Positions 1,236-17,797 of a stretch of 64,000 bases of DNA are shown here, one piece after another. The first letter of the stretch is position 1. Each line of letters opens with the position of its first letter. The stretch spans positions 4,265 through 68,264 of the forward strand of contig JAYQSP010000009.1 in NCBI GenBank assembly GCA_038146925.1, read 5' to 3'. The translations under genes and the position numbers were made by a program. The DNA comes from Alphaproteobacteria bacterium. GTDB lineage: Bacteria; Pseudomonadota; Alphaproteobacteria; MPNO01; UBA830. The notes under the pieces are model-generated. The model searched no databases, was not told where the DNA came from, and saw nothing but the letters and a program-made list of their open reading frames with translations.

Positions 1236-2111
1236 ATGGCCAACCCGCTCCCCGCCGGCGATCCGGACGTCGCCGCACGCGAACATGTGCGCGCCATTAC
1301 CCGCGCCGCCGGTTCTTCTTTCTATTGGGGCATGCGAATACTGCCGGAACAGCGCCGGGATGCGATGTTTGCCGTTTACGCGTTCTGCCGCGAGGTCGAC
1401 GATATAGCCGATGGCGACGCCCCCCTCGACGAGAAACGCGCCGGCCTTCAACGCTGGCGACGTGACATCGATGCCCTGTATTCCACAACCGCACCCGCCC
1501 CCACTAAACCCACCCTGCGGGCTCTGTGGCTGGCGATCAACCGTTACAGACTGGATAAACAGGACTTTTTCGAGATCATTGCCGGCATGGAAATGGACAC
1601 CGACGGTTCCATGCTGGTGCCGGATTGCGAACGCCTGCAACTATATTGCGACCGGGTAGCAGGCGCGGTAGGGCTTCTGTCGATAAAGATATTCGGCGAT
1701 TCGGGTGAATCCGCCCGCGCGTTCGCGCTTAGTCTCGGAACGGCGCTGCAGCTCACCAATATCCTCCGCGATCTGAAGGACGACGCCGCGATGGGAAGAC
1801 TTTATCTCCCCCGCGAGCAGTTCGAACAGCGTGGCGTTGCCATCGGAACGCCGGACGACATGCTTAGTCATCCGAAACTCCCGGAAATCTGCGGACCGGT
1901 CGCCGAACGCGCCCGCGAAAAATTTTCGGAAGCGGAAGCGATGCTGGCACGCGCCGACACCCGCGCGCTCAAGCCGGCGATCGTCATGATGATGAACTAC
2001 CGTCGTATCCTCGACCGGCTGATCGCCAGACGTTGGCAAAACCTTGATGACGATGCCGGTCTTTCCAAGCCGGAAAAGTTATGGATTACCTTGCGCTATG
2101 GGGTCATGTGA
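1236..2111 (+). CDS. hpnD: Presqualene diphosphate synthase HpnD
   Basis: GSSFYWGMRILP..RR.AMFAVYAFCREVDDIAD, YCDRVAGAVG, LQLTNILRDLKDDA.MGRLYLP; upstream of shc. Confidence 0.88.
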   Translation: MANPLPAGDPDVAAREHVRAITRAAGSSFYWGMRILPEQRRDAMFAVYAFCREVDDIADGDAPLDEKRAGLQRWRRDIDALYSTTAPAPTKPTLRALWLAINRYRLDKQDFFEIIAGMEMDTDGSMLVPDCERLQLYCDRVAGAVGLLSIKIFGDSGESARAFALSLGTALQLTNILRDLKDDAAMGRLYLPREQFEQRGVAIGTPDDMLSHPKLPEICGPVAERAREKFSEAEAMLARADTRALKPAIVMMMNYRRILDRLIARRWQNLDDDAGLSKPEKLWITLRYGVM

Positions 2112-2205
2112 CCGATATATGTCAGTGTGCGGTGCAGCAGAACGGCGCGGCTGATGCCGCGACGCGTCGCTGCACCCTTATTTCAGCGGCAAACAAAGAG
2201 ACAGG

Positions 2206-10530: not shown

Positions 10531-11292
10531 TCATCGAATGCCGGTATCGATCCGCGGCAGGATGTCGGTATTTGCGCGCGCGACGTCTTGGGGAAAATCG
10601 ATCTCTACCCACGGAATCCCTGTTACGTCCTCGAACCCGATCCGGGCCGGATCCCGCAGGATGGCATCCCGGATGACCTCTTCGTAGGGTGCGTCGCGGT
10701 CGCCACGATCGATATATGCCTGCGCGCCCTCGATCAGTTCTCTGCACAGCCCAGGCGACCATTTGAAGAACCCGACGGATTCGCCGCACCAGTCGAACGG
10801 CGTCTCCACGATCTTGCGGAAATCCACCACCGTATTTTCGTCCGACACGCAGATTTTAACGGGTTCGTCCCCTTCCTCGAAATCGCGGTCGACCAGCAGG
10901 CAGTTCGGATGGCCCGAATTTGCAAGCCGCGCCAGCATCCGGGGGTCGTACAACACGTCCGCGTCCATCAGAATCACCGGACCGGACGCCGCCGCCATCC
11001 AGTCGCCCATGACGGCAAGCGTGAGCACGCTGCCCTCGGTGAAATCGGGATTGAAAACGTAGCTTATATCGCCGGGAAAAAGGACTTTTTCAGCCGCTGC
11101 CTCGATCTCCGGGGCACGATAACCGACCCCGATACTGACATCCCGGACCCCGATCCGCGCGAGATTTTCGAGATGCCGCGCAAGCAGCGTTTTTCCGCCG
11201 AAGTCAAGCAGCGCCTTGGGCGGTTTATCGTCCATGTCGCCGAGCCGGTTGCCGACGCCGGCCGCCAGGATACAGGCCGAGTTCGCCGTCAT
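10531..11292 (-). CDS. Phosphocholine/phosphonate cytidylyltransferase family nucleotidyltransferase (LicC/PntC-like)
   Basis: ILAAGVGNRL, PKALL, MDADVLYD, GESVGFFK, WVEIDFPQD; start refined to MTANS. Confidence 0.85.
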   Translation of the reverse strand: MTANSACILAAGVGNRLGDMDDKPPKALLDFGGKTLLARHLENLARIGVRDVSIGVGYRAPEIEAAAEKVLFPGDISYVFNPDFTEGSVLTLAVMGDWMAAASGPVILMDADVLYDPRMLARLANSGHPNCLLVDRDFEEGDEPVKICVSDENTVVDFRKIVETPFDWCGESVGFFKWSPGLCRELIEGAQAYIDRGDRDAPYEEVIRDAILRDPARIGFEDVTGIPWVEIDFPQDVARANTDILPRIDTGIR

Positions 11293-11389
11293 GACCCGGC
11301 ATCCCCACCGGAGACGGCGGGGAAATCCGCATTCCGTAAATTCACTGTGAAGTACTCCGCATCGGTCATTGCACGTCACTCTGACGCGC

Positions 11390-11407
11390 CTTACATAAAC
11401 CTGTAAC
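11390..11407 (+). promoter_or_regulatory. Pho-box-like direct repeat upstream of hpnM
   Basis: CTTACAT-AAAC-CTGTAAC, 7-4-7 with 11-bp period. Confidence 0.5.
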
Positions 11408-11464
11408 ACAAAGTGCGCTGTATTTGCGGTTGGCGTCTTTGCGTCTCATGACGGGAGAAACGGG

Positions 11465-12115
11465 TTGGTATCGAATTCGATCTGGAGACTGCGCCGCGGC
11501 GCGGCAGTACTCGGGTTTGCGCTGTGCTTTTTCGCGACCGGGGTAACGGCGCAGACAGCGCCGCCTGCCGATCCCGGACGCCCCCAGGCCATCATCGCCG
11601 GTTTCAACGAATCTCTGCTGGGCGCCATGAAGAATGCCGATACGCTTGGCTTCCCGGGCCGGTGGAAAGCCCTGGCGCCGCCATTGACGCAGGTTTTTCA
11701 TCTGCCCGTCATGACGCGGATCGCGGTCGGGACGCACTGGCGCAAATTGACTCCCGAACAGCAGGACCGTCTGGTCGACAGCTTCAGCCGCCTGACGATC
11801 GCCACCTATGCCAACCGGTTCGACGGCTGGTCGGGCGAAAGCTTCGAAATGCGCGGCATGGAAAATGTCCGCGACAAAACGGTGCTGGTCAAAACCGCGA
11901 TTATCCGGCCTAACGACGAGCCCGTGGAAATCAATTATCTGATGCGCCGGTTCGAGACCGGGTGGCGGGTAATCGATGTGTTCCTCAAACGGTCCTACTC
12001 GGAGCTGGCCACCAAACGATCGGAATATTCCAGCGTCCTGCGGCGCCATGGCTTCGACACGCTGATCCGCCAGATCGAGGAGAAGATAACCCAGTACGCC
12101 GCCGGCACGGGCTGA
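11465..12115 (+). CDS. hpnM: HpnM / Ttg2D (MlaC)-like periplasmic lipid-binding protein
   Basis: Signal peptide; F....M.RIAVG..WRKLTPEQQ..L...F....ATYA.RF, W.VIDV.....SELA..RSEY; GGGAGA RBS before TTG. Confidence 0.8.
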   Translation: MVSNSIWRLRRGAAVLGFALCFFATGVTAQTAPPADPGRPQAIIAGFNESLLGAMKNADTLGFPGRWKALAPPLTQVFHLPVMTRIAVGTHWRKLTPEQQDRLVDSFSRLTIATYANRFDGWSGESFEMRGMENVRDKTVLVKTAIIRPNDEPVEINYLMRRFETGWRVIDVFLKRSYSELATKRSEYSSVLRRHGFDTLIRQIEEKITQYAAGTG

Positions 12116-12116
12116 T

Positions 12117-12773
12117 ATGGGCAATCCCCTGACAAAAGCGTTCGCCGTCTGCGCGGCATTGTTCGCGCTCGCGGTCGCCGACACACGGTCCGCGGCGGCC
12201 GCCGGCAACGTCGTGCGCCTCGACCCGGAGAAGGCTTCACACCTGTTGAGCCTTGCGCGCATCGACGGGCGTCCGTTAACGCCGGATCTGCTTCATGGCC
12301 GCGCGGTGATCGTGTCGTTCTTCGCCAGCTGGTGTCCGCCCTGCAACACGGAATTCGAGCATCTAAACCTGCTGAACGTCACGCACGCGGCGAAAGGGCT
12401 GACCATCGTCGCGGTCAACCAGTTCGAGGATTTCACGGGGTTCGGCGACGACGGTAAGCGGCTGAACCGGTTTCTCGACCGACACCAGCCGGTCTTCTCC
12501 ATGGTCAAAGGCACCGATGAGACGGCGAAACTGTTCGGCGACGTTAAACGCATCCCGACGGTGTTCGTATTCGACCGGTCGGGTGGCGCCCGGCTCCATT
12601 TCATCCATGCAGAAGGCGCCGTGAAAACCAATCCCGGCATGGACGAGCTGCAAAAGGCGGTACGCGATGCGCTGGGCGTCAGCGCGGCCGGCACCTTCCC
12701 GTTGTTGCCCGAGTCGCCGGATTCTGTAACAAAGCCGTCACATTTCACCAAACTGGCAAAAGGCCGCTCCTGA
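12117..12773 (+). CDS. TlpA family thiol-disulfide oxidoreductase
   Basis: Signal/anchor peptide, [10 protein letters not shown] (CxxC), [10 protein letters not shown]. Confidence 0.85.
12724..12741 (+). promoter_or_regulatory. Pho-box-like direct repeat upstream of pepM
   Basis: CTGTAAC-AAAG-CCGTCAC, within the AT-richer 3' tail of the tlpA-like ORF. Confidence 0.45.
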
Positions 12774-14443
12774 TGGCGACGAATGTCGAAACCGGCGCGA
12801 TGCCGGGCAAACCCGGTTCCGCGCTCAGCAAATCCGCCCGGCTGCGTGCATTGCTGGAGGGCCCCGAACTTGGCTTTCTGATGGAGGCGCATGACGGCCT
12901 GTCGGCAAAGATTGCGGAAGAAGCCGGCTTCGAAGCCATCTGGGCGTCCGGGCTTTCGATGTCCGCCGCGCTGGGCGTGCGCGATTCCAACGAGGCCTCG
13001 TGGACCCAGGTGCTGGAAGTTCTGGAATTCATGGCCGATGCGACCGGCATCCCGATCCTGATGGACGGCGACACCGGTTACGGCAATTTCAACAATGTCC
13101 GCCGGCTGGTGATGAAGCTCTGCCAGCGCGGCATCGCCGGCGCCTGCATCGAGGACAAGCTGTTCCCGAAGACCAATTCCTTTATCGGCGACGGCCAGCC
13201 GCTGGCCGACATGGAGGAATTCTGCGGCAAGATCAAGGCCGGCAAGGACAGCCAGACCGATCCCGGCTTCGTGCTCGTCGCCCGGGTCGAGGCGCTGATT
13301 TCCGGCTGGGGACTGGACGAAGCGCTGAAGCGCGCCCACGCCTACCGGGACGCCGGCGCCGACGCCGTGCTGATCCATTCGAAGCAGTCCAGCGCCAACG
13401 AGATCATGTCCTTCATGCGCGAATGGGACGATTCCTGCCCCGTCGTGATCGTGCCGACCACCTATTACGGGACGCCGACCGACCAGTTCCGCGCCGCCGG
13501 GGTCAACGCCGTGATCTGGGCCAATCATTCGGTCCGAGCCTCCATCAGCGCCATGCGCGAAGCCGCCCGTAAGATTCACGACGAAGAAAGCGTCGTCGAC
13601 CTGGAAGACCGGATCGCCACCGTGAAGGATATCTTCCAGCTTGCCGGAAACGACGAGCTGAAAGACGCCGAAGACCGTTACCTGCCCACCGACGACGACG
13701 CGCCGCGCGGCATCGTGCTGGCCGCCACCCGCGGCAGCGCGCTGGGACCGCTGACCGAGGACAAGCCGAAATGCATGGTGGAAATTCAGGGCCAGCCCCT
13801 GCTCCGTCGCCTGACCCGGTCGCTGCGACAGTCGGGCGTGCGCGACGTCGCCGTCGTGCGCGGCTATGCCAAGGACGCCGTCGACCTGCCGAACCTGACC
13901 TATATCGACAACGACGCGTTTGAGACCACGGGCGAAGCCGCGTCGCTCGCCACGGCGATCGACCGGCTCACCGGCGACACCGTCATCGCCTATGGCGACA
14001 TTCTGTTCCGCCGCTACATTCTGGACGCGCTGGTCGAGACCGAAGGCGATATCGTGCTCGCCGTCGACGGCATGTGGCGCGAACGCACCGACCGGTCGGA
14101 AAATTCGGGCCGCGACCTGGTGCGCTGTTCCCGCCCCTTCAGCCCCAGCTTCATCGAGGACGATCCGGTCCTGTTCGAAGGCATCGTCGCGGATGCGAAC
14201 GATGCCGACGACTGCACCGGCGAATGGATCGGTATTGCGCGGCTCAGCAAGAAGGGCGCCGAACTGGTCCGCAAAGAACTCGAAGCCATGAAAAGCGACG
14301 GTACGCTGGAAACCGCCGACCTCGCCACCCTGTTCGCAAGGCTGGCCGATGCCGGTAACGCACCGCACGTGCATTACGTCGCCGGCCACTGGCTTGACGT
14401 AAACGACGCCTTCGATCTCGCCCGCGCGCGGGATTTTTTGTAG
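12773..14443 (+). CDS. pepM: Phosphoenolpyruvate mutase fused to C-terminal nucleotidyltransferase domain
   Basis: Diagnostic [10 protein letters not shown] (EDKxxxxxNS), [16 protein letters not shown]; C-terminal LAATRGSAL...KPKCM, YGDILF, WLDVND. Confidence 0.96.
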
Positions 14444-14566: not shown

Positions 14567-15703
14567 ATGATCAACGCCGACGATTTCCTCTCTCCCGCCC
14601 GCGACGCCGGATACGATTTCTACACCGGTGTGCCGTGTTCGTTCCTGACAGAGATCATCAACCGGGTCATTTCGGATACGTCGCTGGACTATGTCGGCGC
14701 GGCGAGCGAGGGCGAAGCGGTAGCCATCGCATCGGGCGCCTGGCTGGCGGGACGCAAAACCGTGGTCATGTGTCAGAATTCCGGTCTCGGCAACACGGTC
14801 AATCCGCTGACGTCGCTGAACCACCCGTTCAGGATCCCCACCATGATGATCGTCACCTGGCGTGGCCAGCCCGGCATCACGGACGAACCGCAACACGAAC
14901 TGATGGGCCCGATCACCCCGGATTTGCTGGACACCATGCATATTCCGCACAGCGTATTCCCCCAGTCGGAAGACGAGATAGCGGACGCGCTGGCAGCGGC
15001 GCAGGCGAAAATGGACGAAACCGACCTGCCCTTTGCCTTTGTCATGCCGAAAGGCTCCGTCGCACCGGAGAAACTGGACGAAGCCGCCCGCGCATTGCCG
15101 CCGCGCGGCACGCTGACGGATTACACGGAAGGCGGCGAGCGTCCGACGCGCTACCGGACGCTGGAACGCCACCTGGCGCTGGTGCCGGACACCGCGGCGG
15201 TAATCGCGTCCACGGGCAAGTCCGGACGCGAGCTGTTCACCCTCGACGACCGCGACCAGCATCTCTACCAGGTCGGCTCCATGGGCTGCGCCAGCGGCAT
15301 GGCGCTCGGCGTGGCGCTGAATTCGGACCGCAAGGTCGTCGCGCTGGACGGCGACGGCGCCGTGCTGATGAAAATGGGCGCGCTGGCGACCGTCGGCGCC
15401 TATCAGCCGGATAACCTGATCCACATCGTCCTCGACAACGGCGTCCACGATTCCACGGGCGGCCAGTCCACCGTCTCCGCCTCGGTCGAATTCGCCGAGA
15501 TCGCCATTTCGTCCGGCTACGCGACAGCGGCGAAATGCGACAGCCTCGACGGGTTCGAAAAGGCCTATTCGGCGGCGCTGTCGGCAGACGGCCCGCACCT
15601 GATCCATATGCGCATCCAGCCGGGCTCGCTGAAGGAACTCGGCCGGCCGACGGTGAAGCCGCCGGAAGTAGCCCGGCGGTTCAAGGCGTTTCTGGCGGGG
15701 TAA
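14567..15703 (+). CDS. ppd: Phosphonopyruvate decarboxylase
   Basis: FYTGVPCSFL, EGEAVAIASGAWL, MCQNSGLGN.VNPL.SL, DEPQH, GSMGCAS, ThDP motif DGDGAVLMKMG..NG.HDSTGGQ. Confidence 0.95.
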   Translation: MINADDFLSPARDAGYDFYTGVPCSFLTEIINRVISDTSLDYVGAASEGEAVAIASGAWLAGRKTVVMCQNSGLGNTVNPLTSLNHPFRIPTMMIVTWRGQPGITDEPQHELMGPITPDLLDTMHIPHSVFPQSEDEIADALAAAQAKMDETDLPFAFVMPKGSVAPEKLDEAARALPPRGTLTDYTEGGERPTRYRTLERHLALVPDTAAVIASTGKSGRELFTLDDRDQHLYQVGSMGCASGMALGVALNSDRKVVALDGDGAVLMKMGALATVGAYQPDNLIHIVLDNGVHDSTGGQSTVSASVEFAEIAISSGYATAAKCDSLDGFEKAYSAALSADGPHLIHMRIQPGSLKELGRPTVKPPEVARRFKAFLAG

Positions 15704-15717
15704 CAGACAAGAATGAG

Positions 15718-15808
15718 CCCCTCCCCCTTTTAGGGGGAGGGCTAGGGAGAGGATTAAATAAGCTTGTCTCCCCCTCTCCCTAGCCCTCTCCCCGGAGGGG
15801 CGAGGGGA
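15718..15808. repeat. GC-rich nested palindrome, family B
   Basis: GAGGGCTAGGGAGAGG (15737-15752) perfectly inverted at 15773-15788, plus hairpin CCCTCCCCCT-TTT-AGGGGGAGGG. Confidence 0.75.
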
Positions 15809-15883
15809 TATTCAGTGCCGTCGTCCCGCATTGACTCCCCTGCCCGTTGGCGCAAGAAACACGGCACAAAAGGGAGACATCCG

Positions 15884-16639
15884 ATGGCCGACATCACGCT
15901 TTACTGCTTTCCGCAATCGACCTGCAGCCAGAAGGTGCGCCTTGCGCTGTGGGAAAAGGGCATTCCGTTCGAGGAAAAGCATGTCGATCACAAGAACCGC
16001 GAACACCTCAGCGACTGGTACCTAAAGCTCAACCCCAACGGCGTGGTGCCGACCCTGACCGACGGCGACGACGTGATCATCGATTCCTCGGTCATTCTGG
16101 AATATCTGGAAGACGTCTATCCCGAACATGAAATGTCGCCGAAGGACTTCGTGAAGCGCGCCCACATGCGGAAATGGCTGCGCTATCTGGAAGAGGTCCC
16201 GACCCCGGCGATCCGCGTGCCGTCCTTCAACAAGCATCTCGCGAAGCGCTACGAGAACATGGAGGACGACGCCTATCAGGCGATGGCCGAGGCGCATCCC
16301 GTCCGCAAGCATTTCTACCAGCGCATGAACAAGACCGGCTTCAGCGCGGAAGAAACGGCGGAATCCCTCGACCGCTTGGACAGCGCCGCACAACGGGTGG
16401 CCGAAGCGCTCGACGGCCACGGCAAGGACTGGATCATGGGCGACATGCTGACCATCGTCGATGCCGCCTACATGCCGACCGTCGACCGCATGATCGATCT
16501 CGGCCTGAACGACATGATCGACAGCCGCCCGGCGCTCAAGGCCTGGTACGACCGCTACGCGGCCCGAGACGCTTTTTCTAAGACGTTCTACGAAGGCGCG
16601 CGGTTGACCGATATCTTCGGCAAGGATGCGGCGGCGTGA
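15884..16639 (+). CDS. Glutathione S-transferase family protein
   Basis: STCSQKVRLAL.EK, YLKLNPNGVVPTL, DSSVILEYLED; GGGAG RBS before MADIT. Confidence 0.92.
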   Translation: MADITLYCFPQSTCSQKVRLALWEKGIPFEEKHVDHKNREHLSDWYLKLNPNGVVPTLTDGDDVIIDSSVILEYLEDVYPEHEMSPKDFVKRAHMRKWLRYLEEVPTPAIRVPSFNKHLAKRYENMEDDAYQAMAEAHPVRKHFYQRMNKTGFSAEETAESLDRLDSAAQRVAEALDGHGKDWIMGDMLTIVDAAYMPTVDRMIDLGLNDMIDSRPALKAWYDRYAARDAFSKTFYEGARLTDIFGKDAAA

Positions 16640-16801: not shown

Positions 16802-17797
16802 TCAGTCCAGCCGCCCGTGCGTGGGCGCGAACAGATCGTCGACCGGGATGATCTCCGGGATGAAATTCTGCTGGTGCATGTATTTGACGAACGCCTCCAG
16901 CGTCGGCCGGTTCTCGTCAACGCCGTAGGGCCACGGGTCGCCGCCGAACACCTCGTCGATTTCGCGCAGGTCGTCGAACAGCCAGGGCAGCATGTACTTC
17001 TGCGCGCCGGAGAAATACATCGCCTCCTGCGCCCAGTCCTTGGCCGCCAGGAACGCCTTGTACAGGCTCTGCGCCACCCATTTGTGCCGGGCGTATATGT
17101 CTTTGCGGATCACCACCGTGTGCATGATCGGGTGAATGCGGTGCTCCTTGTAGTATCTCTTTTCTTCCTCGCGGAAATCGGGAAAAAGGTAGCCGACCTT
17201 GTCCGGATCGGTGCGCACGGAATCCGGCATGCGCGAACCCAGCACGGCGTCGATGTCCCCGTCCCGCAGCATTTCCGACAGGGACTTGTCGGACGTGTTC
17301 GGCGTGATTTCCACCGGTTTCAGAAGCTGCGGCGGCGCGGGCGGATCGCCGTGGCTGCCGGCCTTTTCCATCGCGCCCTGGATCCACTGCACGTCCGACA
17401 GGTCGACGCCGTAGATGTTTTCCAGATCCCCGCGGATCCAGATCGCCGCCGTCTGGGTATAGAGCGGCGTGCCGATCCGCTTGCCCGCCAGGTCCTTGGG
17501 TTCTTTGATACCGGCCTTCTTGTTGACGCAGATGAAGGCGTGGCGGAATGCCTTTGACGGGAACACCGGAATGGCGATGAAAGGGCTGATGTCCTTTGCC
17601 GTCATGGTGACGTATTCGGCCAGCGACATTTCCGACAGGTCGAATTCCTGGGCGCCGACCATGCGGTCGAAGATTTCGCGCGGCGCCTGAATTTCGAGAA
17701 AGTTCAGATCGATGCCCTCGACGTCGATCAGCCCGTAATTCAGCGCCTCCATGCGGTCATACGGCCCGCAGGCGAAAGTAAGCGGCAGTTTGGACAT
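16802..17797 (-). CDS. 4,5-dihydroxyphthalate decarboxylase-like protein (periplasmic-binding-protein fold)
   Basis: LTFACGPYDR..AL..G, FD.SEMSL..Y, PVFPS..FRH, TAAIWIRG.L, IHPIMH.VVIR, DPWPYGV..NR. Confidence 0.8.
   Translation of the reverse strand: MSKLPLTFACGPYDRMEALNYGLIDVEGIDLNFLEIQAPREIFDRMVGAQEFDLSEMSLAEYVTMTAKDISPFIAIPVFPSKAFRHAFICVNKKAGIKEPKDLAGKRIGTPLYTQTAAIWIRGDLENIYGVDLSDVQWIQGAMEKAGSHGDPPAPPQLLKPVEITPNTSDKSLSEMLRDGDIDAVLGSRMPDSVRTDPDKVGYLFPDFREEEKRYYKEHRIHPIMHTVVIRKDIYARHKWVAQSLYKAFLAAKDWAQEAMYFSGAQKYMLPWLFDDLREIDEVFGGDPWPYGVDENRPTLEAFVKYMHQQNFIPEIIPVDDLFAPTHGRLD

Follow-up and report, generated by a model that had tools for sequence, protein, structure and literature searches.

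Introduction

It is an open question what controls the production of phosphonates by microbes in the marine phosphorus cycle. The question is raised here by a 64,000-nt stretch of DNA from an alphaproteobacterium (contig JAYQSP010000009.1, positions 4,265 to 68,264 of the forward strand; this whole stretch is called the window, and positions without a contig or locus name are its own), in which two Pho-box-like motifs lie in front of hpnM and pepM, two genes of one operon. A Pho box consists of at least two direct 11-bp repeats, each with a conserved 7-bp core and a less conserved, A/T-rich 4-bp spacer (PMC4415409). The original prediction for this locus was that phosphate status controls a phosphonate pathway together with a hopanoid carrier. 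The pepM part of this claim is supported by box quality, partial conservation and selection on codons, whereas the hpnM part is doubtful. Our analysis suggests that phosphate status is likely linked to pepM and that the motif in front of this gene, at 12724-12745, is fairly probably a functional PhoB operator through which PhoR-PhoB controls pepM-ppd transcription in this clade. We found no literature linking a Pho box or PhoB with pepM or phosphonate biosynthesis, a result that, with the incomplete coverage of the search, is absence of evidence only. A conserved candidate PhoB operator at pepM would be a concrete, testable link of phosphate supply to phosphonate synthesis in one marine alphaproteobacterial clade.

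Motif 2 scores among the pst boxes of its genome

The core of motif 1, CTTACAT-AAAC-CTGTAAC, occupies 11390-11407 on the forward strand and is followed by 57 nt (11408-11464) up to the TTG start codon of hpnM at 11465; with its second spacer the motif reads CTTACAT-AAAC-CTGTAAC-ACAA (22 bp, 11390-11411). The core of motif 2, CTGTAAC-AAAG-CCGTCAC, lies at 12724-12741 on the same strand, with 31 nt up to the ATG of pepM at 12773, and the 22-bp version is CTGTAAC-AAAG-CCGTCAC-ATTT (12724-12745). The two motifs are 1.33 kb apart, have the same orientation and an 11-bp period each, and are each upstream of a gene of one operon; their sequences, coordinates, spacings, orientation and period are all as originally predicted. 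Motif 1 sits in the divergent intergenic region (11293-11464) between a nucleotidyltransferase (NTP-transferase) gene on the reverse strand and hpnM on the forward strand. Motif 2 is not intergenic; it lies within codons 203-210 of a 218-aa redoxin open reading frame (ORF; 12117-12773), the TGA of which overlaps the pepM ATG (TGATG). Both sequences agree with the definition of a Pho box in having direct 11-bp repeats, 7-bp cores and 4-bp spacers.

The genome to which the window belongs (3.75 Mb in 12 contigs) encodes PhoB (TIGR02154, 339 bits, above the cut-off) in a gene at G000 C1:95646-96323 that adjoins phoU and pstCAB and lies downstream of a phoR-like gene. It carries phoR-pstCAB-phoU-phoB, pstS and phoX, and canonical tandem 11-bp Pho boxes are found at pstC, pstS and phoX. 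The pstC box is CTGTAAC-AAAA-GTGTCAT-GCAA-CTGTCAC-AGAT-GTGTAGT, with TAGTCT exactly 10 nt after the last core and 46 nt to the start codon, and the pstS box is GCGTAAC-AAAA-CTGTCAC-TTAT-TCGTCAT-ATGT-CCGTCGC, with TAGGTT exactly 10 nt after the last core. The phoX box has three repeats, GTGTCAG-AAAA-CCTTCAC-CGAC-AGGTCAC-AAAT, and is outside the window (genome G000, C9:108260-108292, forward strand), 63 nt before the start codon of phoX (C9:108352-110334).

These boxes served as the reference for scoring. A position weight matrix (PWM1) for the half-site was derived from the pstS promoters of 25 relatives, with the genome of the window left out (about 15 effective sequences), and 22-bp dimers were scanned at all 7.5 million positions of that genome, to which all ranks refer. 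A matrix from 8 half-sites of the genome itself, which is overfitted, was kept as a sensitivity check. With PWM1, pstC ranked first (26.6), motif 2 second (22.14), pstS third (21.8), the second dimer of pstC fourth (21.4) and motif 1 fifth (20.84). The rank of motif 2 was stable (2, 3 and 5 with the 22-bp, 18-bp and core-only variants), and with the own-genome matrix it was 7, second-best among the non-training sites. The rank of motif 1 depended on the model, being 5 with PWM1, 25 and then 82 when the A-rich spacers were not scored, and 111 with the own-genome matrix. Scoring with a clade PhoB matrix against the genome background, as the original prediction had proposed, hence places motif 2 at ranks 2-7 over four matrices and motif 1 anywhere from 5 to 111. 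The half-sites contribute 13.0 and 9.1 bits in motif 2, and 7.1 bits (the weak first half, the core of which breaks the GT dinucleotide) and 13.7 bits (the strong second half) in motif 1.

The mismatch counts to the E. coli consensus quoted in the original prediction were 3 for motif 1 (11 such sites genome-wide) and 4 for motif 2 (87 sites), and the genuine pstS, pstC and phoX boxes also have 3-4 mismatches. The plain CTGTCAT-N4-CTGTCAT consensus, to which both motifs have 4 mismatches like 1,528 other sites, was rejected as too crude, since even the pst boxes of this genome depart from it. The dimer score of the phoX box is no higher than 13.3-13.6, which puts it at a genome-wide rank of about 95-100 and shows that functional boxes in this genome can score well below motifs 1 and 2. 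As judged by these scores, motif 2 is indistinguishable in sequence quality from the pstS, pstC and phoX boxes.

With PWM1, motifs 2 and 1 are the two best sites in the genome outside the pst genes, and by our own estimate the chance of a second top site falling within 1.4 kb on the same strand is about 4e-4 (2 x 1400 / 7.5 million). The region of the motifs is the top same-strand cluster genome-wide, an AT-rich island excepted, and with the core-only model it is the sole place with at least two separate same-strand sites within 1.5 kb. The core-only cluster has a third site, TTTTCAT-CTGC-CCGTCAT at 11695-11712 (forward strand) inside hpnM, which is a by-product of the HLPVM codons of HpnM; its core-only score is 17.4 and its full 22-bp score 9.4. 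We rejected this site as part of the system because it falls on a conserved protein motif, (V/Y)(F/Y)HLPVM, and its spacer is GC-rich.

Codon choice at motif 2 follows the PhoB matrix

Since motif 2 lies in coding sequence, its conservation can be compared with that of the encoded peptide. The redoxin proteins are 46-64% identical among the relatives, and the tail around motif 2 is variable. The 8 codons of motif 2 rank first of 211 windows for an identical codon given an identical residue (0.86, compared with 0.52 gene-wide), and they are also first when windows are ranked by the excess of nucleotide over amino-acid identity. Their G+C content at third codon positions is 0.375 against a gene average of 0.79, and rare codons are used there: TCT, GTA, ACA and TCA make up 5%, 7%, 8% and 5% of their families, respectively.

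In a recoding test, the peptide of each lineage was fixed and all synonymous recodings were enumerated and weighted by genomic codon usage. The share of recodings that score at least as high as the observed sequence was 4.6e-4 in the window, 1.8e-3 in L007, 2.5e-6 in L008, 1.1e-5 in L011 and 2e-6 in L012 (L numbers denote pepM loci of other genomes), and in L008 and L012 the motif has the maximum score that the peptide permits. The effect persists when the number of A/T-ending codons is fixed (0.05-1.3%), which shows that it is not mere A/T enrichment before a start codon.

Synonymous-site conservation is elevated over 12702-12752 (forward strand), a zone that comprises a -35-like element, GTTGCC (12704-12709), motif 2 and about 7 nt after it. 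The share of identical codons at identical residues peaks in codon windows 196-205. The -35-like element reads CTTGCC in seven of the eight close relatives and CTTGCG in the eighth (L005); its rare Leu codon TTG is identical in 8/8 aligned sequences, and TCC is found in all 7 relatives. CTGTAAC-AAA, the first half of motif 2 and the start of its spacer, recurs unchanged as the first repeat and spacer start of the genome's pstC box. On this comparative evidence, motif 2 is a DNA element under selection, and the selected feature is its match to the PhoB matrix; it would be a clear case of an operator written into the synonymous positions of an upstream gene.

Motif 2 is kept in part of the clade

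The gene order of BON gene, NTP-transferase gene and hpnM-redoxin-pepM-ppd is common to 8 relatives (L005-L012), all of which encode PhoB. The orthologous site scores 20.5 in L007, 18.7 in L011, 17.9 in L012 and 16.1 in L008, i.e. at least 16 in 4/8 relatives, and motif 2 is kept in five of nine lineages when the window is included. Among the GC-rich pepM loci L005-L047 there were 7 matches scoring at least 16, of which four are the motif 2 site and two are in L020 and L023. The closest pepM loci (82-88% protein identity) are from uncultured marine Rhodospirillales-type alphaproteobacterial assemblies. All in all, pepM is very probably a member of the clade's Pho regulon.

A second clade of pepM loci (about 61% identity) has a conserved element that resembles a Pho box, in the opposite orientation and 70-90 bp ahead of pepM. 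Its sequence is TCGCAAC-AGAA-ATGTAAT in L020 (L020:4864-4885, score 18.7) and GTGCAAC-AGAA-ATGTCAT in L023 (L023:4906-4927, score 17.1), and L034 has it in the matching place. The gene upstream of pepM is co-directional in L020.

A separate observation concerns PstS, for which a search at E <= 1e-40 gave no match in 3 of the 4 same-genus genomes (G001-G003) and a protein only 68% identical in the fourth, while PstS proteins of other genera of the family are 80-89% identical. The PstS of the same-genus genomes may be divergent, or these assemblies may be incomplete.

Motif 1 overlaps a putative hpnM promoter

The hpnM upstream regions of the relatives gave a different result. No dimer scoring at least 11 was found in 8/8 of them, and motif 1 was found in 0/8. 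In the alignment of these regions, a TTG is invariant in 9/9 sequences and (C)CTACATA is kept in 7/8 relatives at fixed spacing, the relatives having TTGTAT-N16-CTACAT and the window TTGCAC-N16-TTACAT. This TTG-N19-TACAT element looks like the sigma-70 promoter of hpnM, as far as its conservation tells. In the window the putative promoter spans 11369-11396 (forward strand), with a -35 TTGCAC (11369-11374), a 16-nt spacer and a -10-like TTACAT (11391-11396); a strict E. coli-type promoter scan of 11200-12900 found none. The predicted transcription start is near 11403, inside motif 1, which would span about -14 to +9.

The weak first half of motif 1 (CTTACAT) coincides with the conserved -10-like element, and the strong half (CTGTAAC) lies in about 26 extra bases (at ~11405-11432) that the window has in comparison with seven relatives. 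The hpnM-proximal box was not supported as a conserved Pho site; one half belongs to a conserved promoter-like element and the other lies in the stretch specific to this genome. Motif 1 may stem from the recent gain of a PhoB half-site beside a promoter, or from coincidence; as a Pho site it is doubtful, and binding of PhoB to it is possible, with the balance tilted against it. When motif 1 is taken alone, a match by chance, or one that PhoB would bind without consequence, is the likeliest reading.

A conserved AACCTAGATAAAAA-N7/8-CTGTCATTCG element in the intergenic region between the NTP-transferase gene and hpnM in L005-L011 (e.g. L005:3560-3600) was also considered and rejected, as it holds only a single half-site. 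It has one perfect CTGTCAT and no dimer scoring at least 11, is not recognisable at that spacing in the window, and probably serves the divergent NTP-transferase gene as promoter region.

Repression is the slightly favoured direction of the proposed control

In promoters activated by PhoB, the box takes the place of the -35 element and must end about 10 bp ahead of the -10 element, a spacing that is strict (PMC10294691). The pstS and pstC promoters of the genome obey this spacing, and neither motif 1 nor motif 2 does; 10 nt downstream of motif 1 there is CTGTAT, which has no A at position 2. Motif 2 overlaps a putative internal promoter, (C/G)TTGCC-N17-TAACAA, proposed from conservation only; if real, it would start transcription near 12739. 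This geometry is at least as compatible with repression as with activation. Repression is favoured because the box overlaps the putative internal promoter and sits just before a start codon, and in our analysis PhoB binding would somewhat more probably lower than raise pepM-ppd expression.

In the mechanism that we propose, phosphorylated PhoB would bind motif 2 when phosphate is scarce, and its occupancy would lower pepM-ppd expression and spare phosphorus. Motif 1, which covers the putative -10/+1 region of the operon's promoter, would be a weaker, genome-specific addition with the same repressive effect if PhoB binds it. The induction of a P-consuming pathway implied by the original prediction is the less likely direction, neither box having the 10-nt spacing to a TAnnnT -10 element. 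The Pho logic that had been called unusual would then not be an anomaly, as repression would be ordinary P-sparing, the expected logic applied to a new target.

The alternative that survives best is the earlier reading, in which phosphorylated PhoB activates from one or both boxes and starvation induces hpnM, the redoxin gene and pepM-ppd; we regard it as rather unlikely. Both boxes are directed toward genes, as activating boxes are, and the 57 nt between motif 1 and its start codon are comparable to those at pstC (46 nt) and phoX (63 nt). The phoX box also has no clean TAnnnT at 10 nt, which suggests that -10 elements here may be loose, and in L012 there are 53 nt between box and ATG, which include a GGAGA ribosome site. 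In addition, the phosphonate:phosphate ratio of Prochlorococcus SB rises in P-starved stationary phase (PMC8931226). In contrast, with standard spacing a transcript from motif 2 would begin about 8 nt before the pepM ATG, a leader with no room for a ribosome site, and the conserved TGATG overlap suggests instead that pepM translation is coupled to that of the redoxin ORF. No hexamer with A2 and T6 is found at 10 nt from either box, activation by PhoB demands strict spacing (PMC10294691), and motif 1 overlaps the conserved -10-like element.

If activation were true, starving cells would change over to phosphonate head groups that resist phosphatases, with a hopanoid or lipid carrier for their delivery. 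In its fullest form, which is a shade less probable still, PhoB would activate the operon, and starvation would induce the HpnM-type lipid carrier, the periplasmic redoxin and phosphonate synthesis at once. Remodelling would shift the envelope to C-P head groups that resist the starvation-induced phosphatases of the cell and its neighbours, such as PhoX. Marine phosphonate production would then be a regulated starvation response and not a constitutive trait, and the view of phosphonate production would change.

Alternatives to a PhoB operator at pepM

Apart from the direction of control, several observations weigh against a functional PhoB operator in front of pepM. A null that keeps local composition gives about 1.2 sites scoring at least 22.1 and about 1.8 scoring at least 20.8 per genome, and a third-order Markov null with the own-genome matrix gives 1.0 site at the score of motif 2. 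Since such numbers are expected by chance, neither motif's score by itself is genome-wide significant, and score alone is no proof of function. The site is decayed in L005 (4.0), L009 (-7.2) and L010 (-18.1) and half-decayed in L006 (10.5, with the first half intact), though all four keep PhoB. No forward-oriented box was found upstream of pepM in the distant pepM loci L013-L084. Motif 2 has ACTGGC and not TAnnnT at 10 nt downstream, and the putative internal -10 element TAACAA lacks the usual final T and was not found by the strict promoter scan. In E. coli, PhoB sites are mostly intragenic, inert and unconserved (PMC10294691).

If not bound by PhoB, the conserved zone at 12702-12752 could still be a real element, i.e. 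an internal sigma-70 promoter for pepM, an mRNA coupling element or the operator of another OmpR-family regulator that prefers similar direct repeats; we consider this improbable. The -10 elements of alphaproteobacteria that resemble CTATAT are similar to a Pho half-site. The -35-like CTTGCC, 20 nt ahead of the box, is where the synonymous constraint sets in; folding predicts a weak, conserved hairpin around the box (UUCUGU with GCAGAA); and the genome encodes five full-length OmpR-family regulators in addition to PhoB. However, the codon choice maximises the PhoB matrix score specifically, beyond A/T content, and the identity of CTGTAAC-AAA with the first repeat of the pstC box is a further point against a non-PhoB element. 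A promoter model leaves the second half-site xCGTCAy-ATTT unexplained. The hairpin (RNAalifold, -8.9 kcal/mol) shows no compensatory substitutions in its box-proximal stems, and in the window its pairing is weaker; a reading as RNA structure is not supported.

The remaining alternative, given the same low probability, is that the matches are genomic noise or are bound by PhoB without regulatory consequence. It draws on the number of sites expected by chance, on the E. coli sites and on motif 1, which ranks 25-111 in the other models, is absent from the relatives and has its first half explained by a promoter-like element. For motif 2 it is opposed by the orthologous position scoring at least 16 in half of the relatives, by the gene's strongest synonymous constraint at that place with recoding probabilities of 2e-6 to 2e-3, and by the occurrence of the two top non-pst sites so close together on one strand. 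The conserved TGGCA that follows motif 2 was also considered as a sigma-54 element, but this was dismissed, as a TTGC is lacking 5 nt further on and the GG is unconserved.

Gene context of the operon

The operon starts with hpnM (11465-12115, forward strand), which encodes an MlaC-family, HpnM-type periplasmic lipid-binding protein (PF05494, E=3e-36; TIGR03481, 188 bits with a cut-off of 160). It is followed by the gene of a TlpA/ResA-like redoxin (12117-12773, forward strand), which matches the Redoxin and AhpC-TSA families, the ResA and TlpA subfamilies being below cut-off. Next comes pepM (12773-14443, forward strand) for a PEP mutase (PF13714, E=2e-65; TIGR02320, 387 bits with a cut-off of 320), fused to a MobA-like nucleotidyltransferase domain (NTP_transf_3, PF12804). 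These family matches bear out the originally assigned names hpnM and pepM. Downstream on the same strand are ppd for phosphonopyruvate decarboxylase (14567-15703; TIGR03297, 445 bits with a cut-off of 312) and a GST-like gene (15764-16639). No terminator-like site was found between hpnM and pepM in the E. coli-type promoter and terminator scan. The divergent NTP_transf_3 nucleotidyltransferase gene (10531-11292, reverse strand; PF12804), the ATG of which at 11292 gives MTANSACILAAGVGNRLG, is syntenic in the 8 relatives. A squalene-hopene cyclase gene and an HpnG-like gene are located upstream of the operon.

Other matches to the Pho matrix

The other top matrix hits were set aside, most of them falling in AT-rich islands of contig C11 or in front of genes without a link to phosphorus. 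The AT-rich island in the first ~60 kb of G000 C11, outside the window, has many false Pho-matrix matches (e.g. C11:4296, 17017-17609 and 23733) and may have been acquired horizontally. Two further sites are possible members of the Pho regulon: CCGTCAT-TTAA-CCGTCAT at G000 C11:690783-690804 (reverse strand), 230 bp upstream of a 457-aa membrane transporter, and TTGTCAT-GACA-TTGTCGC at C5:98918-98939 (reverse strand), 20 bp upstream of a protein that resembles, by eye, a SixA-type histidine phosphatase. The third-best Pho-like site of the window, CTGACAT-ATAT-CGGTCAC-ATGA (2104-2125, reverse strand, score 16.2), lies between an ORF that ends at 2111 and the squalene-hopene cyclase gene and points away from the latter; it is probably due to chance.

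Comparison with known Pho-regulated systems

Motif 2 shares with the canonical pstS, pstC and phoX boxes the direct 11-bp repeats, the core [C/G][T/C]GT[C/A]A[C/T] and an A-rich 4-bp spacer; it is likewise oriented toward its gene, and its score of 22.1 is between those of the pstS and pstC boxes of the genome. It differs from them in having two repeats, compared with three or four at pstS, pstC and phoX, in lacking a -10 TAnnnT at 10 nt, and in its place within a coding region, 31 nt from a start codon.

In S. meliloti, as summarised in PMC3131613, the PHO boxes of most PhoB-regulated genes are upstream of promoters, and in orfA-pit, which is repressed by Pi starvation in a PhoB-dependent manner, the box lies just before the start of translation (Bardin et al.; Yuan et al. 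2006). The pepM site resembles orfA-pit in its alphaproteobacterial host, in the position of the box just before the start codon instead of upstream of the promoter, and in a target that is less needed when Pi is scarce. The target of orfA-pit is a low-affinity Pi transporter, whereas that of the pepM site is a biosynthetic pathway for which repression is inferred, and the pepM box is inside an upstream ORF of the same operon.

The proposed logic is also that of B. subtilis, in which PhoP represses the teichoic-acid (tag) genes and activates the teichuronic-acid genes (Liu et al. 1998, as cited in PMC4415409): synthesis of a P-containing envelope component would be shut down under P limitation. 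The B. subtilis regulator is, however, a Gram-positive PhoP with a different box, and no P-free replacement pathway was identified at the pepM locus.

The closest parallel for an inert site is given by the intragenic PhoB sites of E. coli (Fitzgerald et al. 2023, PMC10294691). Like these, motif 2 is intragenic and without canonical core-promoter spacing. The E. coli sites, however, are weak and lack conservation, whereas motif 2 ranks at the top, has a gene start less than 50 bp downstream, is kept in 5/9 lineages and is under selection at synonymous sites.

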